A stretch of 64,000 nt of DNA from Perna viridis (taxonomy: Eukaryota), in the NCBI GenBank assembly GCA_037379345.1, contig CM074512.1:58859597-58923596 (forward strand), read 5' to 3'. Positions 22,101 to 56,254 of this stretch are shown here, one piece after another. The notes under the pieces are model-generated. The model was given only the letters and a program-made list of their open reading frames with translations. It was not told where the DNA came from and searched no databases. The stretch's first letter is position 1. Each line of letters opens with the position of its first letter. Made by a program: the position numbers and the translations under genes.

Positions 22101-23695
22101 AAATGGGATAACTTTATTGTCATAATTTTGAAAAGTATTTGAAAAAATATCTGCTTCAACTCTTGATCTTTTAAAACTTTGACTCATTGACCCTTTTGTC
22201 CTTTTGAAACTTTGACTCATTGACCCTTTTGTCCTTTTGAAACTTTGACTCATTGACCCTTTTAAGTCCTACCCCTGCTTACAATACTTAAAGTTGATTA
22301 TCTCACTTGGCAAAAACCTGAAATACAATGAAAATGGATATAGTGAATATTTCAAAGAGACAACAAACTTACCGGGATAAAAAAAAATGTAAAATTACTC
22401 CAGCTCATGTAAAAGTTTCATAAAAATTCATTGAATAGTTAATGATGAAGTTGCACTTACAACTTTTGCAAAACCTTTATGTTTGATTGCCTCCATTTGC
22501 AAGCATCCAACATTAATATTCTTGCTCTATGCACATTTACACTGTCATGATGCCTCATTTCATCAGCATCCATTGAATGGTTAAGGTGCTTCCAAGGTAC
22601 ATGATCTGATGGACAAACAGACCGGCATGCAAAAATTTCTATATACTACTGCACTTGTTTTGCCTAGGTGTAATAAATTTTCTTAAAACCAGGATTTAAG
22701 TTTAAAGTAACTATCAATATCATATAATCAGGTTCTGAGTTATAGATGGATTTTAAATACATTGTAAAATGAAGTTAACACCTCTTTTGAGAGAAGATCA
22801 CGACATATTTTTTGTACTTAAAATATGTTTATGTTCTGAACATTTTAGACCTGAAAGAAGAGCAGACTATGTGTTGAGTGATTACCATCGAGTGAATTAT
22901 CTCCACAACAAACTGGACAAAGGTGAAAAACACAAACGTAGAAAGAAGAAGAGGGCAAGCAATGGGAATGCAGGCAATAACAATATTGAAGATGGCATAC
23001 AAACAAATACAGAATCTAATATCTCAACTGTTGCAGGAACTTATGAAGGTCAAACAAAACCAGCAAGGTCATCAGGCTATGATGAATTATCTAAGTGTTT
23101 CTCAGGACAGTCAAATTCAGCAAGTTGTGTCACAGAATCTGAAACAAATGGACATGTTGTGACAGGTAGAGAATCAGGTGGATTTACATTTAATTCAAAA
23201 GCAGATGTCTATCCAAATCCCGAATCCACCTCATCTGATACTCGAAATTCAAGAATTTACACACCAACTATTTTGGATGGAGAACCTGATGAAAACTCGG
23301 ATGTCTTTTTCCTATCACATAAAGGCTCTGTTAAGGAAAGTCCATATGCAGTATCAAAAATACTTCCTAATGTGCCTGTAGATCAGACTGATGACATTGA
23401 TCTGCCCCCACCAGCTCCCCATGGCATGTATTTAAATCATCAGTTTGAAAAACTTGGAGGATTTCAGAACCATTCATTCATCAGTGACAATGAGCATAAG
23501 AGTAAACCCTTGCCTCCAAATCCTTTTCCTAATTTGAAATCCCACATATCCTTCCTTGGAGCTAATCTGTTTGATAATGCTGATACTATTATTGAAGGAG
23601 GATTGTATAAGAAAAATAAACAAAAACCTGTCCCTAAGAAGAGACAAAAAATTAAAGTGGAGGATGAAGATAGTGATGACACTATAGAAATTTAG
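1124..23695 (+). CDS. Single-pass type I membrane receptor-like gene, 3' part (5' exons upstream of window). Exons 1124-1174, 8265-8405, 9771-9882, then terminal exon 16671-17352 or 22849-23695
   Basis: All junctions are GT-AG and phase-compatible (1/1, 1/1, 1/2, 2). Spliced peptide: (D)PCLFPSTISTSAATSPELLSTTSEKIKLVTSTFTSLITGVSLDFTTSTDNSILNVTKSTQFLLNAGFPAWLIGVIAVVVIAIIIIIVVVITCIVRSTKGER + tail. Family not identifiable without the ectodomain. Confidence 0.65.
2036..3999 (-). mobile_element. 5'-truncated non-LTR retrotransposon (L1/Tx1-type)
   Basis: Perfect 16-bp TSD ctttttattagaagtt at 2020-2035 and 4000-4015; A-rich tail (poly-T on +, 2036-2060); RT C-terminal half plus CCHC knuckle. Confidence 0.92.
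2304..3998 (-). CDS. LINE ORF2 C-terminal fragment (RT motif QFADDT, zf-RVT CTFC-x8-HLFWNC); no native start
   Basis: ORF 2304-3896 stays open up to the truncation point: INGLHITQIEHKLSQFADDTSLILDG; also SGLNINFSKT, GGLKMINL, CTFCNVEPETIEHLFWNC. Confidence 0.88.
   Translation of the reverse strand: MNGLHITQIEHKLSQFADDTSLILDGTEKSLQESLLELDWFAGISGLNINFSKTQVIWIGSKRYCEDILCKNKNLTWGETSFKLLGLNFDVDLDRMIKLNYDERLVQIKNLINQWSKRNLTVIGKITVVKTLILPVLNHLIISLPNPSSDIIKKINDMIFTFIWNSPISRVKKDVLQKEYQDGGLKMINLFSFITALKTTWIRRAFQNNSKWLSIFMSSLDSEKLFNCGDGYVQNVQKNLKNKFWKDVLNSWAMVLEKEKHVDWEFFLANPVWYNKLIKIGGETVFYKDWFVNGVHYINDLINDDGSYLSLEQLQHKYGININFMKYNSIMSAVKHAAKAFYVGNCKLQRPFIPSFLQTILRSKKGSRDMYKVLNQNDSTPKGQLKWTEVLDNDSLNWKKIFVLPFTVTNNTKLQWLQYRINHRIIATNKFLFKINVINDSACTFCNVEPETIEHLFWNCEFVQNVISEIDNWFLIHGISIPLTKLNFIFGNTSYTSKGEPYNIIILNIKQYIYNTRCFKQMLSLTALKEKLKYMYKIEKMLSVKNKRVELFNKKWQQFQNVLT
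4292..4630 (+). mobile_element. Helentron-associated (HINE/DINE-like) non-autonomous repeat fragment
   Basis: T-run, then hairpin agctca-tctggccataggcca-tgtgagct; body 4370-4570 is homologous to 6290-6470; classification is from recalled bivalve repeats. Confidence 0.55.
4649..6250 (-). mobile_element. Penelope-like retroelement fragment (Naiad-type, RT at C-terminus), 5'-truncated, with 3' tail
   Basis: RT motifs NNIVFVCK, YWIPKLHK, TYDFSTLYT, GIPMGTNCAPLLADLFL, FRYIDD, KRDDFSFRIVNFP; no GIY-YIG after the RT; tail shared with solo copies. Confidence 0.8.
4864..6250 (-). CDS. Penelope-like reverse transcriptase (N-terminally truncated)
   Basis: Uninterrupted ~460-aa RT part of ORF 4864-6411; the first ~53 aa of that ORF come from the neighbouring repeat. 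Confidence 0.82.
6251..6480 (+). repeat. Second partial copy of the HINE-like repeat, abutting the truncated RT
   Basis: tcttctcctctgacactactcgaccaa...ggggatttttgatc...aaaaacatggct matches 4380-4500. Confidence 0.6.
7125..7215 (-). repeat. Solo copy of the structured Penelope-like 3' motif
   Basis: aggtgctcaggaagggagggcagttcctgc aligns with 4830-4859; a partial, oppositely oriented copy lies at 4256-4296. Confidence 0.65.
8265..8405 (+). CDS. Receptor exon, mucin-like Ser/Thr-rich stalk with N-glycosylation sequon NVT
   Basis: ttttcttccag|AACTC...CTTCTTA|gtaagg; 141 nt, phase 1-1, open frame. Confidence 0.65.
9771..9882 (+). CDS. Receptor transmembrane exon
   Basis: ttcattacag|ATGCTGGC...GGAGAAAG|gtgggt; encodes WLIGVIAVVVIAIIIIIVVVITCIV followed by basic RSTK. 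Confidence 0.8.
10515..10800. repeat. Dispersed repeat beginning tgaatatgtcaaagagacaacaac
   Basis: The same motif recurs at ~22343-22368 and ~48400-48425. Confidence 0.55.
13666..14062. repeat. Minisatellite, 57-bp unit x ~7, highly homogeneous
   Basis: Unit ggtccctgctatcagaccaagtgtccttagattccactttcccctcactcggggcat; it explains ORFs 13661-14044 and 13665-14198. Confidence 0.97.
14864..15090. mobile_element. Degenerate MITE-like element
   Basis: Inverted ends ggcagatcc ... ggatctgcc; related remnant at ~25650-25802. Confidence 0.4.
16671..17352 (+). CDS. Receptor terminal exon A (226-aa cytoplasmic tail)
   Basis: ctttttgtag|G TCC AAA; AG|G=Arg joins the TM exon in frame; inside ORF 16636-17352; YENT, YENY, YVNT and DSGYAS motifs. 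Confidence 0.7.
18440..18825. mobile_element. Non-autonomous element with subterminal inverted repeats (taagaatcaggca/tgcctgattctta), copy 1
   Basis: Both ends match, in reverse orientation, the ends of 40078-40348. Confidence 0.6.
20014..20225. mobile_element. MITE-like remnant
   Basis: taggcc...ggcctta ends plus internal inverted pair agattctcatc / gatgagaatct. Confidence 0.45.
22174..22263. repeat. Tandem repeat, 33-bp unit x ~2.7
   Basis: aactttgactcattgacccttttgtccttttga. Confidence 0.9.
22849..23695 (+). CDS. Receptor terminal exon B (281-aa alternative cytoplasmic tail)
   Basis: cattttag|A CCT GAA; AG|A=Arg joins the TM exon in frame; inside ORF 22769-23695; polybasic patch, SGYDEL, KPLPPNP, C-terminal IEI. 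Confidence 0.65.
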
Positions 23696-28601: not shown

Positions 28602-31600
28602 ATGGGTGAGTTTAACATTTTTGTCTTTTCTAAAAGATCTTGCTTTGTTCTAACATACACATCAGGAAATTAGTGCAAGTAGTAGACAGAACACCGTAAT
28701 GAGGGCTTTCTTTTTCTCCTTTCTCTTGTCTTTGAAACTGAAGCTTGATATTTGTCTCGTATGCATACATGGTCTCACGGCCACAGGGTCTTCTTGTTTA
28801 CTCTTCTTTACTTCTTTCTACTACTTTTCAGATAAGCATGCTGACTGTAGACTTGCTCGGTATTTACCGGACATAGAAAGGGTTGTCGGTCCTTTTACCG
28901 ACGAGCGTAAGTCTTTCTTACTTTCTTACTTCCTCACTTTCTACTATCTTTAACTATCATTATTCCTATGATTAAGTCTACTGTTTTCCATTCTCGTTAT
29001 GAACAGTTTTCATCACTACCTCGACCTTTTCACCACGTTTAGTACTCTATTTAGAACTTCTGTCAAAGGACCTTTCTCAAAAATATTTTTATTCATGTGC
29101 CATAGTATGGTCTGTGAGCATTTAATTGGTATTGCTACATGTGTACAAGTATATTACTTGACATAACAAATTATTAACCATTACATCGGTGGTTTTTTTC
29201 CTGTTTTCCCAACTATTGTGAATGTTTGATTTGTATAATGTTACCTTTTTAATCCGACACCCGAGTTATCCAGGTTCATGTTGGTAGTTTCATTGTTAAA
29301 AAAAACTTTCCTAAACAGTCTGCCTAGTTACACGATATTTTATTTTTAATCTGTGATTCAATCTTCAGCAGTGCCTCGAAACACAAGAAAATGTACCTGT
29401 TATAAAACTTCAAGATTCAATTTCTCTGAAGTTGTATGCACCTTTAGTATTACTAGTAAGTCTTTGTGAACGTGGTAAAATGAATTCCTTAAAGTATGCG
29501 ACATCTGTTCAACTTCATGAGTTCTATGATGAGTAAAACTGGCATTATATCATTAGATAACATTTTAAAAGATAATTATGAATGTTCATTAATTTCAGAG
29601 CGTGTAGAGTTGAGGATTCTGGTGGATATTCAAAACACGAGAATATTTGTTGCTGATATCAAACGTAGAGAAAGAAAAAACAACTCTAAAGTAGGTTTCT
29701 CGAATCTTTTTGTTTTGTTGTGTTGTTTTTGCTTTTGTTTTGTTTTGATTTTGTGGTTAATTCACAAGCCTGCTTTACAAATGGACCAATATTAGTTAAA
29801 TCGAACTGACATATTAGTTTATAAGTCAGCAATAATTTTGATAAAGGTTTTACTCTTAAATTATTTTTTCTACAATCCATTGCAGGATTTAAACAACAAT
29901 TGGGGTTTCCAGCAGCCATCCTTCAAAGAATATGGAAACTATACTGATAATTCTTGGAAAATACAGAAAATATCAAATGCTGTTAACGAACTGAAGTATT
30001 TTACCCAGTCTCAATCAAATTCCATCTTCAAAACTGGAGTCGCATCAGCTCATGATACTAGTGCCAGATGTATTCTGGTAGAGCCAAAACATCACAGTCA
30101 GTATAAGTCACGTGTCACCCTTAGAGACGGAGTAACACAAACCTGTGATGCAAGAGCCCAACTGTTTGGGAGAGAATCGGAGTACTTAAGTCAGTCTAAG
30201 CCACGGGTCTTCCAGAACGATAGAGAAACCCAAACTGATCCTAGATACACCGGAGCAGATTTGAGGTACGCCAGTCAATCTCGTACTATCTTCAAGGATG
30301 GGAAGACACAGACTGATGGTTCGGATAGTACTGTTGAGGCGATCAGGCTCAAAGACTTGCTGAAGGCGACTGCTCAGAGACTTCACCGTAAGTTTTCATA
30401 CTATATTCTAGCATTACATGTTAAACTAACATAAGTAAGTTAATGTTTTAATGTTCCCATTTCAAGTTACGACACTGATAGCAAAAATAGTAATTCAACA
30501 AATCATAACCACGTGTGCTGTGTTGTTTCTTTTGGGTTGTGTATTACATTTTTGTTTCCTTCTGTTACCGTTTTGCTTTTCCCTTATATGTTTCTCCTCC
30601 TTTATTGTAGATCCTGCCATTTATGCACCAGACTACCTTAGTGCATGTATAGATGAGTTGGACAATATATATTCGGAGGTGAGTTGAGAATATCGTATAT
30701 ATATATAACAGTCTTTTATCACTAATTTTGACGAAATTCACGTGACGGCATGTAAAAAATGCATGAAGTATAATTATACTAAGCTGTGTAAAACTTGGTT
30801 CAATAAGAACCTATTAGGTGTTTTTTGTGAATAGAGATGCATTGTTTGACACACGAAATTCAAACGTAAATGACATATGTAAGTATTGATGACTTGTATA
30901 GAAATCTTAATTTTTTATATAGCATTAACATTTAACTCTATTTCAGACAACCTTTTACCGAAACGACACACATTTGGCCAACCACCGCTTTGCTGATATA
31001 GTGAGATCTATTCTCTACCCCGTTCTGAGTGTGTTTAGGACTCAGCAATTAAAACCTATCATAATAACTCACGAAATTGGCGGGAAAAGAGAAGCATCAA
31101 CTCAGTCTTATTCACCAACTTCTGCTTCCTCGCAACAGTCAAAATTATCTTACGTTCAACAACCTACGTATTCTTACTCACCTCAGCTAGCTTCTTACTC
31201 ACCACAACCAGCTGCTTCATCACCACAACCTACTTCTTACTCATCACAGTCAACTTCTTCTTACTCACAACAGTCAACATCTACAGACGAACTACATTCA
31301 AACGATCCACAAAGTGGAAATTATATTGATGAAAATTATCGTCCAGGTATTTTGTTGAAGCCTAAAACCAGTTGTAAACCAAAGAGAGTATCGTTTAAAG
31401 AAGGCTTTGATGTATATAGTTCGTCCAGAAACACGGAGCCACATCATGACAGCGATAGTGACAGGTTGTATGGGCATAGAAGAATAGTTTTCGGGATAAG
31501 CCAAGCTGCCACTGTTCCTTCAACTGATTACATCAACAACAATGTCTTCAAGAAAGATGAATTTCAGGATGCAAGCGAAGCTGAAAATACTGGCGAAGGT

Positions 31601-34600
31601 AGGAAACTAAGTCTATTATTGGGTCAAGAAATAAAATTTAGTACAAAAGTATTGGAATAAAATTAAGAAAAGCAAGGCAAATTTGATATACGTATGCTTA
31701 TTTACATTACATGTTATACGAGTATAAACCAATTACAGAACTTTTTTACTGTTATGAATAGATCAGTTAAGTTATTCAAGGTTTGTATTTTTTCTAATGC
31801 CAGGAAATCCTTATCCAATTTCATGATTAGACAATTTCCATCCTAGAAATGACATACTTGTACTAGTGTAAGTAAGACTTACAATCTTAGACAGGTATAT
31901 ATCTCAAACGTTTCTTGCTTGTTTTGCAGGTGAATATGGCAAAAAGAATTCTATCACTGATTATGTACCTGAGAATGTACAAAATACCACCACGGCCATT
32001 ACATATGGAAATTCAAGATTATATGATGCATCAAAATGCCAAGAAATCAGAGAAGAAGTTGAACAATATTTTGCATCGTCTACGGAGAATTTCAGACGTG
32101 AAAGCAAAGCAACATCTGCAAACTTGTTCAACAAAGATACGTTTTCCTACAGCGAAAACCTAGAAAACGAACCGCATGACATAAACCCTGTTTATAAAAC
32201 AGCTTCTGTTGACAGGAGCGAGGATGAACTAGACGACAATCCACCTCTATGTTATGACGATGAAGATGATTTAGAACCGTTGGATATTTCATGGCCACCA
32301 GTGCCAGACTTAGCCTCGCTTTTAGAGGAAGATACCCGAGTTCATCTCACCGATATAGATGATGATTACACTCAATATATCTCATGTAAAAGACCAGTCT
32401 ATCCTGTAGTGGAGTATCCATTGTATTACAGGATTGAAAACCACGTGGATTTTTCTTCTGAGGATTTGTTTCAAGATGAGTCTGAAAGTATTGTCATCAC
32501 TCCATTATCTTCTGAGGAAAGTGAGGTCGAGTATGACACAGAAAGTTCTACTCAATATACAGAAACTTCTGGACCCGAGGCGACTGCCAAGCATATTGGA
32601 AATAAAATAAACATTCAAAAAACAGTCTTGGGGATTCCACCAAAGAACATTGATAAACGTAAGTATAGTTTGATATACAGTACTCCAATTAGTAAGCGTA
32701 CTTAAATAGATAGTAAAGTGATTTCACAACCCACGAGGCTTATTATCTAGGTATACACATATGCTTAACGAAGAAGTCGAAGATTCGAAACAGCACTTGT
32801 TAGTAGATGCATTATGCTGGGCCAGTGATAAAAAAAAACATCGGTAATCAATGTTAAAAATAAAATAAAATAATAACAATTAATAACAATAAAGACCGGA
32901 GTATGCACAACTTCTCAGTAGCTGAATAAAACATTTTCCTCAAACAAAAACAAAAAAGTAAAAATGTCGCATCGCATGTTTTCGGTATGAAGATTTTAAT
33001 CGCCAAAATTTAAAATTTCAGAATACAGTCAATCCGGGGCGCCTGTTCGATGTCAAAATTTCTTGAAACAAGATTCTAACCAATTGGCAACTGAAATAGT
33101 CAGTACGGAAATACAACGTACTGACAAAGAGAAAATGGTGGCCAGCGAAGCAATAAACAAACCTAATTCAATCGACAGGAATTGTTTCAGCGTTGAGCGA
33201 TTCTTCAATGATACCGCTAGTGATGAATATCCAAACAGCGCAACAAGTGCATCAGAAAGCTATCTTGATCCAAAAAGTGATGAATTGTTTGGAAGTGATA
33301 GTGAATTGGAAGAGTTCGAAAGAGAAGAAATTGACAATGTCACATGTATGATTTCTTCAACAACTGGAGAAGAAATTTTCCTCGACCTCAGTGAATTAGA
33401 CGAAAACAGCGATAATCATCAAATAAAAAAATCACTAACTGCAAGCTCCCCAAGAGGATATGTTGAAAATGGCGATGAGGCATCAAACGATGAAGACTTC
33501 TGGAGCACAAATATGAAATGCACTGATGTACAAGCTAAACTGAACGATCATGTTGTTCAACCAACCAGAAAACAAGTTGAATCGAACGATCATGTTGTTC
33601 TACCAACGAAAGAACAAGTGAAACGTTACGATCAATATATGCTACAATCGGAAGAAGTAGTAAAACCGAACCATGAAAATGCACTGCCAATCGAAGAACA
33701 AATAAAACTGGACGATCAAAGACCACTATCTACTGAAGAACAAGTAAAACTGAATAGTCAAAGTTCATTACCAACTAAAGATGCAATATCGAAGCATGTC
33801 GAAAATAGAAACATTCATGATAAAATGGATGAAAAAGTCAATACTGTACAAACACAGGAAAAGCCTGATCATAAAGACACCAACAAATATGAAACTCTAG
33901 CAGCTGCAACTGTGATGGAACTATCCACTATAACTGATGACATTATGTATGACGAGGTCGCAAAAAGAATGAAAGAAATTTCAATGGATGAAATTTCAAA
34001 TAATGTTAAAGTTGTCAGTAAATCTGTCCTAAGCAAAGAAACCAACATTGGTATAATTTCTAGAGAAGACCCTCCAGATATTGTCAGCAATCCACTCATT
34101 CAAAACGACCAGAAAATTCAGCCTTGGGCATTCAATTGCGGAATAAAAGAGAGCTATGAAGAAACCTCATATGACAGTGATGATTTCTGGGAATTAAATG
34201 GTAAACATATAGCTGAACAATCAGACGATGATGGTACAGTTTCAAACAAGCACGACAATGGCGTAATTGAGCATACTGCAAGCAATAATAAATTCAATTC
34301 TGTTGCAGAACAAACCTCCGAAACTCATATGGCAGATTTGAATTTGACAACTTCTGATGTCCAGAAGAAAAAAGAAAAAAAGGAAAACTGGCCTTCATTA
34401 AATGACAATGTGAATGAAATCAATGTCGCCGATGAAAGTTCTTGTGACAGTGAAGACTTCTGGAACATGAGTGCTGAAGAAGGTGAAGAAAAAATCGAAT
34501 CAAAGGAATGCGAAATGCTGCCGGTTGAAAGTGTCGCTTGTAACAGTTACGAAGATCACAAGATTGCAAGTTATGGTCAAGTGATCCCCGCCCAAGGCAA

Positions 34601-37600
34601 TAAATCTGAGGACCTGAAACTTGACAGTTTCATTCATGATGTCATAGACAGAGCAAAATTGCCACAGGAAGCAGTTTCAAGAGAACAAACTGAATGTAAA
34701 CGGCAACTAATTGATGGCACAACTTTAAACAAATATGGAAATAGCAATATGAGGTTGGTTGCTAGTGAAAGTGGAATGAAACCTTCTGAGTCCTCTGTCA
34801 TGAAACTTAACACTTTAATTAATGATGTCCTAGAAAGAGCAAAATTACCAGAAGACACAATTTCAACAGAAGAAACTGATCGGCAATCAATTGAAAGTGC
34901 AACTGAATACAAACGCGAAGAAAGCAATGTGAAGTTTGCTGCCTGTGAAGGTCTGTCTGGGTCATCTGTCATGAAACTTGACACCTTAATCCACAATGTC
35001 ACAGAGCAAGCAATATTGCCAGAAGACACAGTTACAACAGAACAAACTCAATGCTCATATAAAGACAGTAGAGATGATAAAAACATGGATAGTCAATCAA
35101 CCAGTGGCATTAAAAATGAAAAACCATTAGTCAACCATTCACACTCCTTTGACAAAGAATACCCAAGTTCTGTTAGCAGCAGTGATTTCTGGAAGAGCCA
35201 CACATCCGATAAACACGAATCCAAAAATCAAGTAAAATTAGTTGATAACGAGAGCAAGCAGATACCATTAAGTAGCTCAGATTATTGCGTTCATATTATG
35301 TCAAGGTCTGATGATAGCCCAAGCCGTAAATCCTCCTCATGCGCAAGTCATGACAGTAAAAACAAGTATAAAACAAAACGCGATACTTCCAGTGACGAAA
35401 GCGAAAGGAGCAGCTGGACCAGCCGAAGTAGTCGCAGTTCCAGGAGCGATCGCAGAAAAAGGTATACGAAACGAAGGGGTAGTTCATCAGAATCGTATTC
35501 CAGAACAAACAGCAGTAGAAAATCGTACAGTTCAAGAAGTTGTACGAATAGTACTGAAACAACTACTGACTCTTATTCAAGTGATGACTACACCAAAAGT
35601 TCAAGCATATCGAAAATATCTGCAAGGTTCGATTATAGCAGAAGCACTGATAAATCAAAAAGTTCTGACGACAGAAGAAAAAGCAGGAACACTAATTCGT
35701 GTCTCAGCGACGCCAGTAATCAGAGTTCAATAAAATCGGAGCTGCAGTCCATCAATCATTCAGCAAAAAGCGATCGAAATGAAATTAATGAACAAAATAA
35801 ATCTCCAATAAAGGAAAAATGGCATCATTCTGATCAAACAAGAACTGATAACACAAACTGTGCCATACATTGCTCCGAAGACAAAAGTAGCACCAGTAGC
35901 ATTGCTGAAGACATAGTATCTTTCGAGAGTTCCCAGTCCAAACACTCTGATAATAAAAAGTACAATCATGTTTCTGAAAATCCATGCTTAGCTAGCGATG
36001 TATCTTGCGGCAACGAAAATAGCACAAAAGAAGCCGTGGAAGTTGGAACAACCAATAATGACCACTTTAATGATAGCGCTATAGACATAGAAGTCAAAGT
36101 GGAACCATCTCAGCAAGCTACCCAAAGAGAATCCGAAAATGATAGTAGCAGCATAAGTAGCATAGCGGAAGAAATCGAATCTATTTCAGCAAAAGACTGT
36201 CCACCACAAGAGAGTGAAAACCCGATAAATGCAAAAGCTGGAGTTGGAGCATGGGAATCTCCTACTGACAATGTTTTTAGCAGCCATGATAAAAGTGATG
36301 CCAAGCTTTCAGATCATGAGAGCAAAACTTCCTGTGATGTTCATTCCATCACTTCCCCTAAAAACGAGGGCGACAAAATCGCAAATCTAAACAGAAGTCT
36401 ACCAGAAAAAGTTTCTCATGAGTTGATCACAAGTGAACAAAGAGGATCTGAAAGCGATCAAGGCAGCACAAGTAGCACAGCAGAAGAAATTTTATCTATT
36501 TCTGACGAAAGCAGATTTTCTAAACCTTGTGATCATTCAAAATCTAAAGTCGCTGCATGGCTGTTTTCTGAGAAAGTCGCTGGGTCACAGCCTATGGCTA
36601 CCGCTAATGTATTAAGCAATGATATCACGGGCAAGATGGGCCAAGGAAAGGCCAGATATGGTCGGAGAAGCCAACTAAAAAAGTCAGATGTTGATGTGAC
36701 GAACACGGGGTCCAAAACAATGGATATCTTTGCAGACACAGATTGGCTAAAACCTCAGGAACACGAAATTAAAAGAGGTATTTAACATTTTACAGCTATG
36801 AAAAAAAATATCATGTTTGTGTGTAATTTTCCAAGATATGCTTAAAATTGTTTAAACACGATGATTAATTTTTTAAAAATATTTAAACAAATTGAGCGTC
36901 ATATTCTGCGATAACAATACTTATACTTGTGAAAAGTAACCAAAAAAAACTCATTTTAGGTAAAAAATGATGCAATTACTTTGTGATACATTTAATATCT
37001 TATAATTATATTTCAAATAGCAACAAACAGGTGAAATGGAAAGTTAGTTTTAAAGACATTAATTAATATATACTTAGAAAGTGATGGTCTTTTTTCAGGT
37101 GAGGCGAAGACAGAAATACGTGTCGATAAATCACACATTGAAAGCAGCTCTTGGAATGATAATGAAAAGACCGAAAGTAATACTAATAATTGTGATAACG
37201 GTCAAATTAATGAATATAAGAAAGGTGCAAAAGAAGTAGAGGAACAAAAAATAGACTTGGCGTGCGAAAACAAAGAAATACCCTCTATTACCAAAACGAT
37301 TGGTATTAATGGAGGAAAAAAAGAGCCAGTTGCTGAAAACAAAACACAAGGGGTATCCAAAGAGAAGAACAATGCTAAACCCAAAAAGGTGTCCAACATT
37401 TGGACAAAGATGATGGCAAAGTATGATGCCCCCAGCAAGCTAGAAAAAGAAGCAAAGAGTAAGAAATGGACAAAACAACGAGATTCAATAGCCAACATGT
37501 CAGATTCGGACAGAAGTCTGACGGATTCTGAATCTGACTCTGGCCAGAAGAAACCAGGCAGGACCCCCTTCAAAGCATTGGCGATAAACGACAGTTATGT

Positions 37601-39947
37601 TGTTGAATCTCCCAGCGAGTCAGATCCATGGGAGCTGCCGGATTACACAGGTGGTAATTTCATCATACCGTCAGAGGATGATGGTGATGAAATCGATAAG
37701 CTGTTAAATCAAATGGGGAAGCGAAAATCATCGAAAAATCAAGATCCGTCCCAGAAGTTAGAACAAAAAATACCTCTTGTGAATGAAAAAGAAATTTTCG
37801 AACCATTACCAACCAGTTCGAATATTACAAAACAGAATCTTAGCGCAGTTGGACGAACTTGCTTTGACGATATAATCGAAGAAGATATCTCTTCACATTC
37901 TGAAAAAATCGAAGTACCACAAATCGTAACCAAGCTCAAAAAGAAAGGACTGAATGTAAAATGGGCTTCAGATATCGTCAAAGTCAAATTATATGATGTT
38001 GAAACAGACGAATCCGAACAACAATATGATTATCTAGAAAACAATGATTGGGAACTATCTGATGATAATGATGATGACAATGAATATGCACTCCGGTGTG
38101 CTGTCAATGAGTTGAATGATGATGATACGGATATCGATGAAGATTTTGATGATCCGTTTGATGACAAAGCTTGCTCGATCGATCTTAATCCATGTGATGA
38201 AGCCCGGCGTGAAAGGCCCGCCAATGAATATGCACTCCAGCGTGCTGCTGTCATTAAGAAGAATGATGATGATACAGATATCGATGAAGATTTTGATGAT
38301 CCGTTTGATGATAAAGCTTGCTTGGTCAATGTTTATCCGGGTGATGAAGCCCAGCATGAAAAACCCGCCAATGAATATGCACTCCACTTTGCTGCTGTCA
38401 ATGAGAAGAATGAAGATGATACGGATATCGATGAAGATTTTGATGATCCGTTTGATGATAAAGCTTGCTCGGTCGATGTTAATCCGGGTGATGACGCCCA
38501 GGAGGAAAAACCTACCAATGAATATCCACTCCAGTATGCTGCTGTCAATGAGAAGAATGATGATGATACGGATATCGATGAAGATTTTGATGATCCATTT
38601 GATGACAAAGCTTGCTCGATCGATGTTAATCCAGGTGACGAAGCCCAGCGTGAAAAGTCCGCCACTGAAAGCGATGTAGAAGATTTAGATAATTTTGTTG
38701 ATGATAAAGCTTGTTCTATTGATGTAAACCCTGGCAATGAAGCCCAGCCACTTCAGCCTCACCAAGTTCAATGTGGTGATGAGCCTGAAAACGATATTGA
38801 AGAATATTTTAATCATCAGTCTGATGACCAAGCTTGCTCATTTGATACAAATCCCGACAAAGAAACTCAGTCTCCAAAACCTCAACGAGGTAAATTTGGC
38901 GATCAGTGCAATGACAAAGTCTGTACCGGTCAAAATGCAACACTGCCGCCTAAGCTTGACAACTGCCAGTGTGATAAAAGCTCAGATTCTGATATCGATG
39001 AAGAAATTTATGAGCAATCAGATAGAAGCGCTTGTCCGAAGCCTTTAGTTATAACTCCGAACGACAATGCAAATGAAAAAGAATCTGCAAGGCCTGATAA
39101 CGACCGTGGCAACGAAACTTCTAATGGAGAATTCAGCAGTAAGCTCGGTGAAGAGTTAGATACAATACCACATACTGGTATAGTAGAAACACATTCAAAC
39201 GTTGAAGTTCGCAAAGAGGAAGAGCATGAACATAGAGATATTTCGAAGGAAATCAGTAGGGCTGAAAGTATAAATCTATCTAAACCAAGTCACAAAATCG
39301 AACCGCGCAGCCTGATAAATGTGAGTCCACCAAATCAGGAAGAAATCGCAGATATAAAACCAATTGAGCGGGAGGTACTAATGCCTGTGGCAATAGGTGC
39401 ATCTTTAGTACACATCGGGAATAAACAAGCTACTCTGATGAACTTGAGTTCACAGAAACCGGAAGATATTCCTGAGATGAATTCTATTGAGCGACAGCTA
39501 CAAATGCCCGGAACAAATGGTATTTCTAAAGACACTGGTAGTAATGCAACTGACCTGTTGCTGGGAAATCCTTTGCAAAGGAGAGGGTCAACGCTGACAC
39601 CATTAGCTTCTGTCGAGGAATCTCCCAAGAAAAAGAAAGTTAAAAAAAAGAGAAGTGACAAAACAAAAACAACTGTTGCAGATAACGCAAATGAAAAGCC
39701 CAAAGAAAAGTCTGATAAAAAACCCAAAGAAAAGGTTTATAGAAAACCAAAAGAAAAGGTCGATAAACATCCTAAAGAAAAGGCTGATAAAAAACCCAAA
39801 GAAAAGGTTGATAAACAACCTAAAGATAGGAAGGCTCATAAGAAACCTGAAAATAAACCAAAAAAGAAAGAAGTAGTTGTCTATGAAGATTCGAGTACTG
39901 ATGGATTTGAAATGCCCTCATTTGAACTTGCTGAAGACTATATGTAG
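28602..39947 (+). CDS. Uncharacterised giant acidic low-complexity protein, ~2,908 aa, 9 coding exons
   Basis: Exons 28602-28605, 28832-28906, 29599-29690, 29886-30387, 30611-30678, 30947-31598, 31930-32658, 33022-36777, 37099-39947; all GT-AG, phases chain correctly, total 8727 nt = 2908 aa + TAG. Confidence 0.78.
28832..28906 (+). CDS. Giant protein exon 2 (after ATGG at 28602-28605)
   Basis: ttttcag|ATAAG...GAGC|gtaagt; (M)DKHADCRLARYLPDIERVVGPFTDE. Confidence 0.62.
29599..29690 (+). CDS. Giant protein exon 3
   Basis: aatttcag|AG...CTAAA|gtaggt; phase 1-0. Confidence 0.65.
29886..30387 (+). CDS. Giant protein exon 4 (three TQT motifs)
   Basis: ttgcag|GAT...CACC|gtaagt; within ORF 29838-30434. 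Confidence 0.78.
30611..30678 (+). CDS. Giant protein exon 5
   Basis: ttgtag|ATCC...GGAG|gtgagt; phase 1-0. Confidence 0.72.
30947..31598 (+). CDS. Giant protein exon 6 (S/Q/Y-rich heptad-like repeats, KRVSF)
   Basis: tttcag|ACA...GAAG|gtagga; ORF 30974-31660. Confidence 0.78.
31930..32658 (+). CDS. Giant protein exon 7
   Basis: ttttgcag|GTG...AAAC|gtaagt; ORF 32124-32705. Confidence 0.78.
33022..36777 (+). CDS. Giant protein exon 8 (3756 nt)
   Basis: tttcag|AAT...AGAG|gtattt; 1240-aa ORF 33063-36785. Confidence 0.88.
37099..39947 (+). CDS. Giant protein terminal exon 9 (2849 nt)
   Basis: tttttcag|GTG...TAG; 896-aa ORF 37257-39947 is open upstream to the acceptor. Confidence 0.88.
38079..38750 (+). 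repeat. Coding tandem repeat, 144-147-bp (48-49 aa) unit x4 plus a partial copy
   Basis: Unit starts at 38079, 38223, 38370, 38517; core DTDIDEDFDDPFDDKAC. Confidence 0.95.
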
Positions 39948-40077: not shown

Positions 40078-40348
40078 TAAGTGCCAGTCCCTGTAAGAAT
40101 CAGGCAGTAAAACCCTGCCAATCTGACAGTTTAACTTTAGTTTTAATCTTCAGATTTAAGGAATGAGTACAAGAATAGCCTCCATTTTGAAGCAATAAAT
40201 ACTAGTTGTGCAATACTTATTTTTGCAATGAAATGTTCAGCAAAATATTTTTTTCATTTGTAAAGATCAGATGGTAGTGTAAAAAACATAGATGAGCAAG
40301 TTGTAAAAGGTTTGAACTTTTTGCCTGATTCTTACAATCACATGTACT
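40078..40348. mobile_element. Subterminal-inverted-repeat element, copy 2 (opposite orientation to 18440-18825)
   Basis: aagtgccagtccctgtaagaatcaggca ... tgcctgattcttacaatcac. Confidence 0.6.
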
Positions 40349-41919
40349 TTTTTATCCTTTAATCTATTGTAATAACACTTTATACACATATAACCCATAG
40401 GAGCTTTACTATAAAGGAGAAATGAAAAAATCAATGTTGAAAAAAGAATGCTATGAAATTTTACTGCTACGCTCGATCAGTGACATGCTTCCTACCTTAA
40501 TTTTTAATTGCCGAGTAACAATTAGAGTTATTCTAATTAATAGGTACACTTGTTACCTGTCTCTCTTTATAAATATATAATAAACAAACGTTTAAGTCCA
40601 CACTGTGAAGTATTCACTATCCATTGACTGCACATAACTATACCACAGATGGATAGTGAATAGAGTGTGAAGTTGTTAAAGAAAATATGAACCCCCCCCT
40701 CCAATCAATTAGAGTGGACTGGGCTATATTGCAATCACCTTATCCCTCCATCAATATGTGTTACACTATTCTGTAACATATTTCTCAGATTCTATCTGAG
40801 GGGGTGTTTGTTATTTGGTATATTTCTATTGCATGATGACTTGTACAGTGTCTACCCATTTTACGTAACGTGCAACTTCTTGTTTAACAAAGAGACTTGT
40901 AGCAAGTCTACTTATGAGAAAGTATCAGGTGCTTCCCACTATATCAGTAAAGCTCAAAATTATTACTTATTATTTAAAAGTATGTACAATAATATTTAAG
41001 GCGTTTTTATGTTCATAGATAATTTTTTGTATCATGTTATGGTGAAAAATCCTTAAATTTTGACAACTTATAAAAATGTGTACACAGCATATTATATATA
41101 CATTGTTTGAAAAAGTCACTAGCTTTCCTACATCTCATCCCTACTTGCCTCATATATTTCATTGTGAATCTATCAACTTAGTGCATTGTTTAGATTAACC
41201 CTATGAGGGGAATGAAACAATGCATAAAGAAGACGAGATTCATAAGAAAAATATCACAGTAAGTTAGAGAGGTGAGGGGCAAGCTTGATTAGGATGCACC
41301 TACCCCAAGGGCAAGTAGCTGAAAAAAACAATTCAAATACTGTCTATATTATATGCTTTTATAAAATTATTTTTTGCAGTGTTATCAGAGTAAGAGGACC
41401 TGTCTAATTTATTTTTTAATCTTAAATTGATATTTTCATTTTTTTTTAAACCATTGTATTCCATCATGTTGTCAAATCTGACATTTGGATTAGACAGGTT
41501 TCACAGTCAACAATAAACATTACTGTAAGGTTGATAGTTTCCATCACTAAGCTAAGTGATTTTGGTTCACATAAACACTAAACAGTAATTTATTCCGACC
41601 CTATTATCTGTGTTTAAATACCACAATCAGCTAGCTTACCTTAAGTTGTAAGTGTACAATAAGTTGTAAATTATGACATCATAATAGAAAGTGGTATTAT
41701 GAGGTCATTACTTACAATCCATTTTACACTTAAAACTTTTTGTGAATCTACCAATTGCTATTATTCTGTTCAATAAAGACCATTTTTGTATATACTGTAT
41801 TTGTAACATAATTTTGTTTAATTTTCGTTTTTCAATAAAATTGTTATTTTACTTTTGTTACTTTCTTAATTCCAAATTTGACATTCACATAGATTTTGTA
41901 AATTTATAACAACTGGTAA

Positions 41920-43573: not shown

Positions 43574-43856
43574 TCAATTCAAATGGAAACCTTTTTCAGC
43601 AGTGGCTGCTAAAAGTTTTTCCCGGAGAATATCCTCTGAGGAATATTCTGGCAGTTTGAGATAATGAACACATGTGTTGACTGAAGGAAAGCTAGTATCA
43701 TTTCCGTCAACTTTCCTCACAATCGTTAGTCTTGGATGTAAGTTTGCGAGGCCACCTGGTGGCAGAGATGAACAGCCAGTTGTGAACTGTAGGAAAGCTT
43801 TTTTCTCATCTGGACTTAAACTGGTCACCACATTTACAAACCTTTGGAACCCAGGG
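43574..43856 (-). CDS. HECTD1: HECTD1 last coding exon (catalytic Cys in NTCVHYL)
   Basis: ORF 43574-43873; AG acceptor at 43857-8. Confidence 0.93.
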
Positions 43857-46800
43857 CTAAAAATATAAAACATATTAATTTAATATCAATTGCACTCCTT
43901 GTATAACACATGGTAGATCTTCTCATGTTGGACTTATCTTCAATATTTTTTGTTTCAGTACAATTTGTAAACAATTTATTTTTGGATCTTGAACTTCCTA
44001 AATATTTCGTTCTAATTAGAGGTTACTCCTTGATATACCTCAAGTATAACGAAATTTCCATATTCATACTGGTATTATTTTGCATTACACAAGTGACATT
44101 TATAAGCTGAAATATTTCAGGAACAAAACACACATTATATGTGAAGACAAATTGAACATTGGAACCTTATTATATTCACTGTAAAATATTAAAACTAACC
44201 TTTCTTTAGAATATCCAAGTTTAGGTTCAGTGTAAGTTAGTATATCATCCCTAGACCATTCAGGGGCCTGATCACCACATAACAGTGAAGCTAACTCTGT
44301 AGGACTAAATGAATGTAACTTCTCCATAGAAAATACAGCATTGAAACCATCTGTAATGAAACAAAAAACAATATATATCAGTGTAAAATAACTATAGTGT
44401 GCACTTCTTTTTAAAATAAGAAAAAATGCTTCATATTTTCCAATACCCTATATCACTGTATATGAACAAATTGAGATCAGATTTATGAGTAGATATAAAT
44501 AAATAGAACCAACAACAACAGGGGTACTTAATCTTGATGCATTTAAAAGAGATAGAAAAAAAAATTATATAGTCTACAAATTAAATCCCATAATGTATTA
44601 GTCAAGCCCCATCAGTCTAAAAACAAAATTGTTTTTTAGTTTTACCTCTAAAAGCATCAAGCTGTCTCCTGATACCACTGTTCAGACAGAAATCAGTAAC
44701 CAGATCCACATACTCCTCAATATTCTCTAGAGTTACCTCCTCCTGGAGAAAAAAAAACATGTCAAATAAAGATCAAAAGAAAATACTGTAGGAGAACAAG
44801 TCATTTTCAGTAAAAAATCAAAAATGAAATTCTTGACAGAGTCCAGTTTTAAGGGTTGGGGCAAGTATGGACACTCCATTTGACTTGATAAAGCTTTTAA
44901 TTTTAATTGCGATTTGACATTTGCAACTTGATAAGAGTTTGACAAGAATCAAAGCGGCACCTTTTTTTACCCCTATTCCTAAATGGTTCCAGTCACAACC
45001 TCTATGATAAATCCCAGTCTTCCGTTTGTAGTATAAATCAGAGTAGCCCCTTTTTGACCCTAATTCCAAATTAGATCAACTCACAACCCCCAACGTAAAT
45101 TCCAGTCTTTCTTTTGTTGTATGACACCTTGTGATATCATTTAAAAGAGAACTGTTCAGTTTTACTCAAATTATTTATACAGGACGTCAGGAATATGCAT
45201 GTTTCTGGACTGTAATTCCCAATTAAAGTCAAAACCACCAAAATTAATCCAAGGCATTCTTTGGTGGTATGGCATCTTGTACAATTTCAAAGAGATCCAT
45301 TTACTTACAGTAGAGTTAATATTGTCTTGACATCAGGATAATGTTTTTTTCCCCCTGGCCCCCTTTGGCCCTAATTCCTTAGCGGTTCATGTCTTGCCCG
45401 CCACTATCAATCCCAGTCTGATCTTTGTAGTATGGAATATTGTGGAACAACGTCATCAATACCTGTATGCTAGTTATGTATTAAATTCAATGAAATGCTT
45501 GTTTAATAACCTTTCTTTCGTAATTTGGAACCTTGTTATAAAACTTTATCAAGATCAACAAACAATTTAGATGTTTTGCACAAAAACCATCTACGGATGA
45601 CAACACAAACAATGACAGTGCCATAAAAAGACCAGATTTTTTTTTTCAGATACAAAGTGAAGGATAATATAAATAAATTATAATGTTCCTTAAAAAATAA
45701 AACATTATTATTATATACCAGAACATCCATGAGAAGAAGGAACAGTTAAAACAAAACTTCTCATGGAACAGTTAAAACCATATCATAAGATAAACTTGTT
45801 ATTTGATTTTTCATATTTTAATATTTATAAAAAATAAAAAAAATTGCAAAAACAAATTTCAAGATACTTATTTACTCACATCTTCTCCATTTGGTTTGAG
45901 GTCATATGATGTGTAGCCATATATCTTTGAGGAAGGATTGAACTGGAAGTTTATTCTACAACAGAAATTATTTAATAATAAATACACAAGTAAAAAGAAA
46001 TTATTGGCAAAAGAGTGAGGACAAAAAAATAAATTAAAATTCCTTCATCTTTACAATATTTCAGGATTTTTTTTCCCCAAGATATCATGAACATATTGTT
46101 TTTTTTTTGTTTTTTATCTCATCTTGCAGAAATCATAATAATTTTTGACAGAAAAAAAAACTGCTCCATTAAAAGTTCCTACAAAAAATATTCTGGCACA
46201 GTTAGAGTAAATATTTTTAACTATGTATGTTCAACAACCATTTTAATTTTTGTTCATCCCAGCATGTAGGCTTTGACATTCCTTAACAAGTACAAATGTA
46301 AAAATATATTACACTCCTATAAATTGTTGTAGACTGTTTAAGTATAACAATAGAATATGGATTCTGCTATTGTATCGTTTTTATTTCCAAACTGACATCA
46401 CGACTACACACAACATTAAGTTGCATACATTGTTGTACTAGGTATACCACCACTTGTACAGGACGCTGACATAAGGCAGCAGCCAAAATCCCTTACAACC
46501 TGCCAATCTATATTTAGCCACATATCAAATTTGGAATCAATCTGGAACAGAGATTTTAGGGATGAAAACTGATGGACAAGGTGATTCACATATACCACCC
46601 ACTGTCTGAGTGAGGGTATAATACATTTTAATCTTACTTTAAGTCCTCCTGTCTATATTTATTCTCAGGATCAGCAGATACCACCCACTCACTGAGTGAG
46701 GGTATAATATATTGTAATCTTACTCTAAATCATCCCATCTATATTTATCCTCAGGATCATCAGATACCACCCACTCATTGAGTGAGGTTATAATATATTA

Positions 46801-49800
46801 TAATCTTACCCTAGATCCTCCAGTCTATATTTATCCTCAGGATCAGCAGGATTTCCAAGTCCTAACTGCTGAATCAATATGTTTTTCTGATCAGGTGTCA
46901 AAGTCTTATCTTTCAGAATTTTCTGTTTTTGATTTGAGAGATCTTTAAGCTGGCTCAAAAACACAGCTCTGTGAGTGTCAATTAATTCAAAATCCTCATC
47001 ATTTAGAATTCCAGTAAACCAAGCTGGTGTCTCTGGCTGTTTAGGTTTTGGCGGGTCAAGGATCAGTTCTTTGTCCATGTCCTCAATACTGTAGGATGTC
47101 GTATAGCTGGTCTGGTTACTACTTGGTAAATCTGAATGGTACGATTCCATGGAACTTCCAACAGAGCGATGAAGAGATTGTGTGTACTGTTGTGTAATAT
47201 GGTGACCTACTTCACCCATACACATCAGTTTCAAGAATGGCATAGATAATGGAATATCTATAATACGCTTGTCTTGTAGACATTTGGCAAGAAGTGTGCC
47301 GAGAAACTGGTACAGCTGTTCTATGTTGTGCATGTCATGGCTATCCTGTGGATATGGAGCTGGGAACAGTCCACCAATCCTCTGGATGTAGTAACCTGGT
47401 GGCTTTATACCATGACCAATGTCAACCTGTAGTTAAAATATATTGTAAGCACAAAACAATAATAATATCAGAATATTGAAAGTTTCAGATATATTGCAAA
47501 TATAGTTAATGTAAAGCAACGTTATTAAATGTATTATTAAATTTAAAACAAATTTGGCTTATTTTTATTTTGAATCAACACCCTTTTTGCCATGTACTGG
47601 TAGCCTACAGTTTTATTAATAGAGGAAAGATTCATATGAAAATCTCCATTATAGATATTCCAAATAGAAGAAAACATATGGAATTAAAAAGATATTTTCC
47701 TTAACAGAATTAAGGAGGTAAGGGACACAACTCTTACAAATCATCGAGACGTTTGTATACAACATTTTACATCAATCACATTTATGCATCAAAGTAACTT
47801 GAACTGATTTCATTCTGCTTCAAATTAAAGCTTGATAGGCTTTGTAGAAATTGAATATGATACAAACATATCACTGAATTAAAAGTTATGTCCCTTACCC
47901 TAGGTCTACCTCCTTAATTACTGTTTTTTTGAAATAGAAGAAAGGGTGTGTGTAGGTCAAGTTCAAACAATTTTATTAAATTAAATAAAATAAGTATAGT
48001 ATTACAAACCTCTCTTTCCAACTTGTTTAGAGCCTCATCATCACACAACCACAACCCTAGCTCCTTCTTCTGAATTTCAGCTGCAACAAGAGCATAAAAC
48101 TCTAAAGTGGGACCCAAACCAGTTCCTTCTTCTCCTGAGAATTCTATCTCTAGTATAGATTTCCTTTGTGAGTGGTGTTTCATTACTTGAACAGCCCATT
48201 CTAAGAAATGGTCACCTCTTGGAACTTTAACTCGTTCATGTTTTAGACGACCAATTCTGTATTCACCACCTTCATCTCTTCGTGGCAAAGCACCTCTGCT
48301 TCTTTCTAATGTGGCATCTCTTCTCTCTTGTAACCAAACTATTGACCTGACAAAAGAAATATCATGAGATTAGAATATATATTGAGAATGGATATGTGTA
48401 TATGTCAAAGAGACAACAACCCCACCAGGATGAAAATGGCTGAAAAACAATCTGTTGGAAATGATTTATTTCAGAAGTGACATCAGCAGTTAGGAAGGGA
48501 ATGTTTTAACTTTTAATGCAGAAACAGAATGTATGTTATAGGAAGTCTCACATATTTCCAATGGTGTAGATATATAACAACATAGCTGTGCATTATCAAC
48601 ATGGTCAGATAGATCTGTCCCTCATAGACAATGCCTAAACTCTTATTATACACTTGATTTCTACCATCTAAACCTACCTAGAGCAACCAAATGCAGTACA
48701 AGAGAAGTAAAGTTGTCTGGTGTCATAGGAGAACAACATGGGACACCATTTGGTTAGTTTCTCACACCAGTCTGGCAGTGCATTACTAGCTAACACTAAT
48801 GGATCCTGGATCTGTTGGACTAATTTATTGGTTATCTTCTTACTACAGAAATCACCAGGAGGAAGGTTTACCAAACCTCCTATGTCATCTGAAAGATATG
48901 AAACAAATCTTAGATTGTAGAGTGGACCTAAAAAATGCACAGAAGAGGACCACTGATAAGAATTTATTACCTTAAAATATTTTGTTTACATGAATATGAG
49001 AAGGTTAGTACTGTTTCATGATTCTAATTTTATACTGGCATCATAGTTTTAATAAAGAGAATGTAAACCATTTATCTCATTGATTTGTTTGTAAATAGAA
49101 TTATCAAATGCTATTATTTTGAGTTCATCAACATATCCAAAGAGTACAAACAGTAATGTTCAACAAGAACCATATCATATTTCCCTACCAACATACCAAA
49201 TATGGCCACTGGCAAGAATTTATTATCTTAAAATATTTCCTGTACATGAAAAGGGCTTATACTGGTTTCATAATTTTGATAAAAAGATTGTAAATCATTT
49301 ACCTCATTGATTTTTTGTGAATGCTTCACTCACTGAACTGATCAAAATGATCAAAATGCTATGATTTTTATCATCAATGTCAACTTATCAAATAAGTACA
49401 AACCATAGCATTCTTCAAGAACCAAATCATAATTACCCTACCCTACTTACCAAAGTTTTGCTTCATAGACTGTTCTACCAAATCATAATTACCCTACCCT
49501 ACTTACCAAAGTTTTGCTTCATAGACTGTTCCATACCAATAGCATACAATCTCTGTAGAAGCTGGAGTACATGGTCGATGGTACAAGCTGCCGGATCGTT
49601 GTTCTTAGGTACGTCAGACTCACTCAAAATCTGGTTTGTATCAGACTTGCTCTCAAGTTGGTTGTAAGTAGAATCCTAAAATAAAACCAAAAAATTTCAT
49701 CCTCTTCATATATTATTGTTATCGATAACACCTTGAGAACTCATCAAATAGTTTTACCTATGAACACTGTGCAACAGAAAGGTATTTACTGTAATAGCAT

Positions 49801-55800: not shown

Positions 55801-56218
55801 AAATACAAGCCTGCTTTGAAAGAAACACATACTTTCATAAGAGAAGGAGGAGCTGTTTAAATTAATCTTCCATGTTGGTGTCTCCAATTCATACATTTTG
55901 GTGCACTATTAAACACCCCAAGACAAACTTTAATAAAAAAATATATACTTTTGTCTAAAATTCTGAAGCAATTTATCCCAGTAATTGGAAATAAACATAA
56001 TTTTGTAAAAAGCACACAAGACTAACCTGCCATAGCCTCTGGCATGTCTAATGGTATACATGGATGGAATCAACCATACTCCAAGGTCTATAGCAAACCA
56101 AGCTTTCCTGAAACATAACAAATTATAATGGAAATGATCTCATATCAATTTCACAAGCACTTACTACTGAAAAAGAACAGTCAATTAATTTTAGTGACAT
56201 ATTTTATATTCTATTTCT

Positions 56219-56254
<36 letters not shown>

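Follow-up and report, generated by a model that had tools for sequence, protein, structure and literature searches.

In AKAP11, helices that bind protein kinase A (PKA), protein phosphatase 1 (PP1) sites, an FFAT motif (two phenylalanines in an acidic tract) and an LC3-interacting region (LIR) are combined in one disordered chain (PMC13303681), and the origin of the dual-helix A-kinase anchoring proteins (AKAPs), AKAP11/AKAP220 and SPHKAP, has been placed at the base of vertebrates (PMC12083921). We analysed a 64,000-nucleotide stretch of the Perna viridis genome (GCA_037379345.1, contig CM074512.1, positions 58,859,597 to 58,923,596; hereafter "the window"), in which a 9-exon gene encodes a protein of 2,908 amino acids (aa). 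We assign a probability of about 40% to the interpretation, derived from its sequence, that this protein is an AKAP-type disordered signalling scaffold that would anchor PP1 together with type II PKA and be dimerised by LC8.

In the proposed mechanism, three TQT sites (aa 138-201) would recruit LC8 dimers that join two chains like a zip. GILLK and KRVSF, just downstream, would form a docking site for PP1, from which phosphorylation of the serine of KRVSF would release the phosphatase, as in KNL1, where phosphorylation of the RVxF serine by Aurora B releases PP1 (PMC5874294). Each of three helices (aa 1241-1371) would dock a docking and dimerisation (D/D) dimer of PKA-RII or of another D/D protein, while an acidic FxDxF/DPF array and a Lys-rich tail would give the location, a vesicle coat or microtubules. 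The remaining chain would be a freely drifting spacer, which would explain the missing homologues.

By analogy, the protein would most likely work like AKAP11. It resembles AKAP11/AKAP220 and SPHKAP (SKIP) in being large and disordered, in having more than one candidate PKA helix and in carrying PP1, FFAT-like and LIR-like sites, but it shows no sequence similarity to them, and its helices arose by tandem duplication and lack the N-terminal FA motif. The sperm fibrous sheath proteins AKAP3, AKAP4 and FSIP2 are also large D/D-associated scaffolds (PMC11276731), and restricted expression would fit this likeness, but AKAP3 and AKAP4 are tetrapod or amniote genes (PMC11276731, PMC12083921). Membership in the AKAP110 family (AKAP3/4/11, SPHKAP) is not indicated: the Pfam family AKAP_110 gave no match in exons 2-9, and a genome-wide PF05716 search, run without a positive control, was blank. 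Since the dual-helix AKAPs and AKAP3/4 are placed in vertebrates, any likeness would be convergent.

Predicted docking sites for PP1, LC8 and PKA

Motif frequencies were compared with 3000 shuffled sequences; the patterns were partly set post hoc and no multiple-test correction was applied, so that the values are upper bounds on significance, and for duplicated motifs, whose counts are not independent, the rates of single occurrence were weighed instead. The PP1 pair, GILLK plus KRVSF, with RRIVF, appears to be the best signal outside the repeats, and the putative PP1 and LC8 sites together are the strongest of the non-duplicated ones. The strict RVxF pattern ([K/R][K/R][V/I]{P}[F/W], PMC5874294) is matched by KRVSF and RRIVF, i.e. 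twice as against 0.12 expected, which occurs in 17 of 3000 shuffles; the loose pattern gives 2 matches vs 1.98 expected. A SILK-like motif located 4-30 aa N-terminal of an RVxF was found in 5 and 9 of 3000 shuffles, with the pattern widened to admit GILLK. KNL1, RIF1 and Repo-Man also have a SILK-like motif near RVxF, with Ser at the x position in KNL1 as in KRVSF (PMC5874294), and this Ser falls within a basophilic kinase consensus. The first-pass annotation had named KRVSF and KKKGLNVKW as resembling PP1 ligands and had overlooked GILLK and RRIVF. The strict count bears out KRVSF, and KKKGLNVKW was discarded, as it matches neither the loose nor the published strict RVxF pattern. The suggestion that the three TQT sites resemble LC8/DYNLL ligands also withstands the shuffling: all three have D at position -4, and one is near-ideal, DRETQTD differing from the LC8 motif of PMC3078936 only by R for K (19/3000 shuffles). 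Both the RVxF and the TQT motifs lie in disordered regions, as in PP1 subunits and LC8 clients. The multivalent LC8 clients ASCIZ and Panoramix likewise carry a cluster of TQT sites within a disordered region, but here there are only three, and Pfam detects neither zinc fingers nor any other domain in common.

The candidate PKA-binding element is a ~26-aa unit, likewise overlooked before, whose three copies (at aa 1241, 1303 and 1360) each open with an amphipathic helix; the helix copies account for two of the three highest hydrophobic moments among the hydrophobic 14-mers of the protein. This unit tips the favoured interpretation towards an anchor for both a kinase and a phosphatase. AlphaFold2 run on the three-copy alignment predicts one helix over residues 2-19 (18 residues, mean pLDDT, i.e. 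predicted local distance difference test, 77), in keeping with the 14-18 residues of an amphipathic AKAP helix; a single-sequence fold of aa 1201-1400 also places helices on the three repeats, at a pLDDT of 32, which is too weak to use. In the AKAP helix numbering of PMC12083921, the hydrophobic face comprises positions 2, 5, 6, 9, 10, 13, 14 and 17, and six of these eight (6, 9, 10, 13, 14 and 17) are hydrophobic or small, with Thr at position 14 of copy 3. The FA motif of type I selective AKAPs is absent, positions 1-2 being SE, SS and SS, so that the helices would bind type II PKA, if any. Potential partners are available, as the genome encodes RII-, RI- and SPA17-like D/D domains, including two of RII type (L003 and L006). 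L006 (G000:C3, near 35441099-35441206) is an intronless PKA-RII-like frame of 399 codons, whereas the RII gene L003 contains introns; L006 may have arisen as a retrocopy and may serve a restricted role. Two further amphipathic segments occur as single copies at chance level, aa 726-737 (33075-33110; a loose AKAP match) and aa 258-271 (within 30947-31099).

Several observations weigh against the AKAP-type scaffold. GILLK is S/GILK with one extra Leu and is thus one residue longer than the motif of KNL1, RIF1 and Repo-Man, whose folded domains were not detected by Pfam. Face positions 2 and 5 of the helices are E/S and K, not hydrophobic. For a 12-residue AKAP pattern, for which no source was found, the loose form matches at least once in 68% of shuffles, and the strict form, set post hoc, in 5%; neither Pfam nor the PDB gave a match to an AKAP peptide. 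The three helices count only once, because they belong to one duplicated unit, and pN/pS (the ratio of non-synonymous to synonymous differences per site) among the copies is near neutral, 0.67 for the helix and 0.85 for the whole unit. PKA substrate sites are not enriched (6 vs 4.3 in local shuffles), and the FFAT-like site (31556-31579, exon 6) is at chance level (440-542/3000 shuffles), so that FFAT was rejected as an enriched class. An LD-like pattern fits two of the three copies equally well, with one match in 157/3000 shuffles, i.e. as frequently as the strict AKAP pattern.

The last point, the missing face positions 2 and 5 and the strength of the PP1 and LC8 signals relative to other non-duplicated ones would all suit a disordered PP1/LC8 scaffold without PKA, in which the helices bind another helical-bundle partner, as LD motifs bind FAT, vinculin or talin domains, or bind nothing. 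We consider this rather unlikely: in all three copies the hydrophobic face extends to a conserved Ala one turn beyond the LD core, and the core is preceded by Lys, where LD motifs usually carry an acid.

In mussel sperm, mainly type II PKA is present along the flagellum, acrosome and mitochondria (PMC13425070), which makes a sperm role attractive for the proposed scaffold; the term AKAP is absent from the main text of that paper. A role in sperm or in ciliated cells is a guess. A more specific version would be a triple-helix AKAP built de novo by internal duplication in an invertebrate lineage, in which PP1 would act as a switch and LC8 as a zipper and the tail would attach to microtubules, convergent with the vertebrate-only AKAP220/SKIP/AKAP4 and a candidate anchor of type II PKA in mollusc sperm; we regard it as distinctly improbable. 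If true, it would illustrate the invertebrate solution to the PKA anchoring problem and show that scaffolds of AKAP type can arise via repeat amplification of short motifs. Should the protein bind neither RII, PP1 nor LC8, it would join the large, rapidly evolving disordered orphans that are common in animal genomes.

Gene structure, expression and disorder

The frame extends over 28602-39947 on the + strand (8,727 nt) with a single terminal stop; all eight introns have GT-AG ends and consistent phases, and the surrounding assembly (723 Mb in 46 contigs, spliceosomal introns, GC of ~25-42% per kb in the window) is that of an animal with AT-rich DNA. For RNA evidence, 8 of the 24 listed sequencing runs were mapped to the locus. 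Contigs from runs X1, X2 and X3 are termed "RNA-like", their RNA nature being presumed, as none of the contig sources is recorded as RNA; they contain exact intron-skipping joints for five of the eight introns, i.e. 2 and 3 (X1), 6 (X2), 7 (X1, X3) and 8 (X1, X2, X3). No joint was seen for introns 1, 4 and 5 in the runs mapped, and no listed contig spans the whole gene; low word shares in 15 other contig runs were not counted as evidence. Stranded raw reads of run X9 cover all + strand bins of the exon 3-9 interval at a depth of 0.08-7.4. The 9-exon structure proposed earlier from the sequence is thus correct, an assembly artefact or pseudogene is ruled out by the intact frame and the spliced RNA, and the locus is a real, transcribed and spliced animal gene.

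Expression of the gene is low and sample-dependent. Run X8, from the same study as X9, has a depth of at most 0.11 over the gene, and the five main joints of a neighbouring control gene are covered by 12-25 reads in X8 vs 6-26 in X9; the neighbour is equally expressed in both runs and the gene nearly absent from X8, which indicates a difference between samples. In run X7, for which there is no neighbour-gene control, the depth over coding bins is at most 0.04. In every run mapped over them, many unrelated reads fell on short, highly repeated elements at 40078-40110, 40812-40851 and 47806-47919, the first two of which probably lie in a long 3' untranslated region. A protein collection contains an allele (P0002) in which the stop in intron 3 is read through, so that an unspliced frame of 312 aa extends across exons 3-4 (window 29493-30434); it is probably a gene-calling by-product.

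The protein is rich in S (12.3%), D (9.7%) and E (9.5%), and FoldIndex assigns 87% of its residues to disorder, in agreement with the first-pass description. The accompanying statement that it has no recognisable globular domain needs qualification: Pfam gave no match in exons 2-9 scanned separately, other than three chance ones (E 0.02-0.07), but ordered stretches are predicted at aa 210-298, 1016-1064, 2214-2240 and 2697-2752, and the first may be a small folded, helical unit. A transposon origin was rejected, as Pfam finds no match. From the N- to the C-terminus, the three TQT sites (aa 138-201) and the aa 210-298 unit are followed by GILLK/KRVSF/RRIVF, an acidic stretch that contains the four D-F-W motifs and a repeat of 14 aa, the three 26-aa units (aa 1236-1384), a basic R/S block, in which RS dipeptides are at chance vs local shuffles, three AEEI motifs, four copies of a 49-aa repeat with FDDPF, and a KPKEK repeat; 407 of the 2,908 residues fall within significant repeats. 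All motifs listed in the first-pass annotation were located in the translated frame. Its separately amplified blocks are present, DPF x4 and KPKEK being tandem DNA repeats.

Repeats, variation and the search for relatives

DPF occurs at aa 2311, 2360, 2409 and 2458, DPW at 2135, DWL at 1948 and DWE at 2276; DWE/DWL are marginal (88-129/3000 shuffles). Each DPF overlaps an FxDxF (FDDPF x4), which had escaped notice before, and one such overlap occurs in 35/3000 shuffles. Motifs of either type are ligands of the alpha-appendage platform of AP-2 (PMC5694535), and DPF/DPW and FxDxF arrays in an acidic disordered chain are also found in Eps15, epsin and AP180 (PMC5694535). The main job of the protein might then be multivalent binding of the AP-2 alpha appendage as an endocytic or trafficking accessory protein, for which the constraint on the DPF core, the strongest among all copies compared (pN/pS 0.05), also speaks. 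We find this very unlikely, since the array is one recent tandem repeat with 88% identical DNA, since no EH, ENTH, ANTH or BAR domain, or any other membrane- or cargo-binding domain, was detected by Pfam, exon by exon, and since near-absence from run X8 is unlike core endocytic machinery. The shuffle P-values of DPF and KPKEK reflect duplication, because both are tandem DNA repeats.

The (K/H)PKEK motif is present five times. In MAP1B and MAP2, too, a Lys-rich repeat accompanies an acidic projection region, and MAP2 has a PKA helix as well; the likeness is compositional only, and Pfam found no tubulin-binding or MAP1 domain. The reading of the acidic F-W sites as LIR or W-acidic ligands is not supported as a motif class: acidic LIR-type sites number 1 vs 1.8-2.0 expected, and only one of the four FW copies has a LIR core, so that LIR was rejected as an enriched class on shuffle counts. 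The site at aa 1094 is possibly a good LIR, judged by its sequence.

As no orthologue is available, selection was gauged among the internal repeat copies, with pN/pS calculated pairwise and uncorrected. In addition to the DPF core, the values are 0.29 for AEEI, 0.43 for TQT, 0.44 for FW, 0.62 for KPKEK, 0.81 for the tail of the DPF unit and 1.18 for the post-helix segment; the motif cores were picked after the alignments had been viewed, which biases these values downwards and lessens their support for functional docking sites. Core residues are kept in 23/42 vs 15/162 in the flanks for the FW copies and in 25/36 vs 10/108 for AEEI. Several cores are thus kept among the internal copies while their flanks diverge.

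The coding single-nucleotide polymorphisms (SNPs) count against the proposed scaffold: 15 of 17 are non-synonymous, at a pN/pS of 1.9 that does not differ from neutral, including all seven found in at least two runs; the ten single-run SNPs may include errors, and the tally excludes an SNP in an intron and an allele located at the joint of exon 3. As a whole, the protein shows no sign of constraint by SNPs. No SNP falls in the TQT, KRVSF, helix, FW, AEEI or DPF cores, one lies in a KPKEK copy and one in the post-helix part of unit 2. The distribution agrees with islands of motifs embedded in a chain that drifts freely, although few SNPs are expected in such short cores anyway. The same SNPs, a 9-bp in-frame deletion in run X1, three tandem DNA repeats inside the coding region, the share of residues in significant repeats and the lack of a homologue would also be compatible with a fast-evolving, lineage-specific low-complexity protein that has a bulk structural role, as an acidic spacer or condensate, and in which DNA slippage would have generated most motifs as by-products that lack a partner. 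That explanation is unlikely in our view: the dispersed FW, AEEI and TQT cores are kept despite many synonymous differences and unrelated flanks, the DPF core has 10 synonymous vs 3 non-synonymous pairwise differences, and the pairing of GILLK with KRVSF is rare by chance.

The claim that the protein is an orphan was contradicted by none of the searches. Word-index searches retained 0 of 446 candidates for exon 4 (proteins of 294-2000 aa), 0 of 6593 for exon 8 (2191-5000 aa) and 0 of 664 for residues 90-330 of exon 9 (1660-4740 aa), the N-terminal exons lying outside the search of proteins >2000 aa. Among 1.84 billion representative proteins, exon 4 retrieved only itself, in a cluster of two unnamed members that are both unspliced readings of the present locus. 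Exon 6 matched 0 of 135 metagenome contigs; in the ESM Atlas, exon 4 had no match and the helix region had one at 0.75 (PPP1R17), which is uninformative; and PDB sequence searches gave none or only chance matches (E 0.37-1.3). Within the genome, exons 3, 4 and 6 and parts of 8 and 9 found only themselves, so that these five probed parts are single-copy, exons 2, 5 and 7 lying outside this search. By synteny, 80 of the 123 loci carrying the last exon of the neighbouring gene yielded no tblastn match to the protein at E 1, and the gene was not found in 20 such loci inspected for downstream frames; the loci resemble other animals, with a neighbour-exon identity of at most 83%. Literature searches found no description of the protein, which has no name to search by. 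Such blanks are weak evidence for a fast-evolving disordered protein, and the presence of close relatives in the libraries is uncontrolled, so that "orphan" here means that none was detected. On this evidence we judge the protein to be lineage-restricted and fast-evolving.

Features and neighbouring genes in the window

Table 1. Exons, motifs and repeats of the gene, in window coordinates
Feature	Position	Strand	Basis
Exon 1 (start codon)	28602..28605	+	frame; no RNA joint for intron 1
Exon 2	28832..28906	+	frame; joint 28906-29599 in run X1
Exon 3	29599..29690	+	frame; joint to 29886 in run X1; allele just 5' of donor
Exon 4, three TQT sites in a loosely repeated unit	29886..30387	+	frame; no RNA joint for introns 4, 5
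Predicted LC8 sites (TQT), aa 141/172/198	30126-30146, 30219-30239, 30297-30317	+	motif, shuffles
Exon 5, middle of predicted ordered stretch aa 210-298 (30342-31099)	30611..30678	+	frame, FoldIndex
Exon 6, with GILLK, KRVSF, RRIVF, FFAT-like site	30947..31598	+	frame; joint to exon 7 in run X2
GILLK, aa 381	31346-31360	+	predicted PP1 docking
KRVSF, aa 393	31382-31396	+	predicted PP1 docking
RRIVF, aa 425	exon 6	+	predicted PP1 docking
Exon 7, acidic	31930..32658	+	frame; joint to 33022 in runs X1, X3
Exon 8, 1,251 codons	33022..36777	+	joint to 37099 in X1, X2, X3; stranded reads in X9
Four dispersed acidic D-F-W motifs, aa 866/1095/1186/1429	33483..35192	+	motif, internal-copy comparison
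42-bp (14-aa) tandem repeat, ~5 degenerate copies	33537..33752	+	tandem-repeat analysis
Three copies of ~26-aa unit with amphipathic helix (helices 34620-34655, 34806-34841, 34977-35012)	34605..35051	+	repeats, AlphaFold2
Basic Arg/Ser-rich block, aa ~1468-1600	35301..35699	+	composition
Three Ser-rich (S/T)(I/T)AE(E/D)I motifs, aa 1667/1754/1859	35886..36491	+	motif, internal-copy comparison
Exon 9 and stop codon	37099..39947	+	frame; joint to exon 8; stranded reads
147-bp (49-aa) tandem repeat x4, 88%, acidic core with overlapping FxDxF and DPF	38078..38669	+	tandem-repeat analysis
24-bp (8-aa) Lys-rich KPKEK tandem repeat x6.3	39694..39847	+	tandem-repeat analysis

The gene lies tail to tail with a multi-exon gene for a HECT E3 ligase (Pfam HECT; 43574-61400, - strand), which we take to be HECTD1 and five CT..AC joints of which were confirmed in runs X8, X9, X19 and X20. 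On its other side, the + strand encodes segments of a protein that probably spans the membrane once (9707-9940, 16618-17352 and 22757-23695), resembling a signalling or immune receptor with a long tail rich in Tyr motifs; two long frames of it had no Pfam match. A non-LTR retroelement with two long frames (zf-RVT and weak RVT_1 matches) occupies 2304-6426 on the - strand, and a tandem repeat of ~57 bp at 13630-14090 keeps several frames open on both strands.

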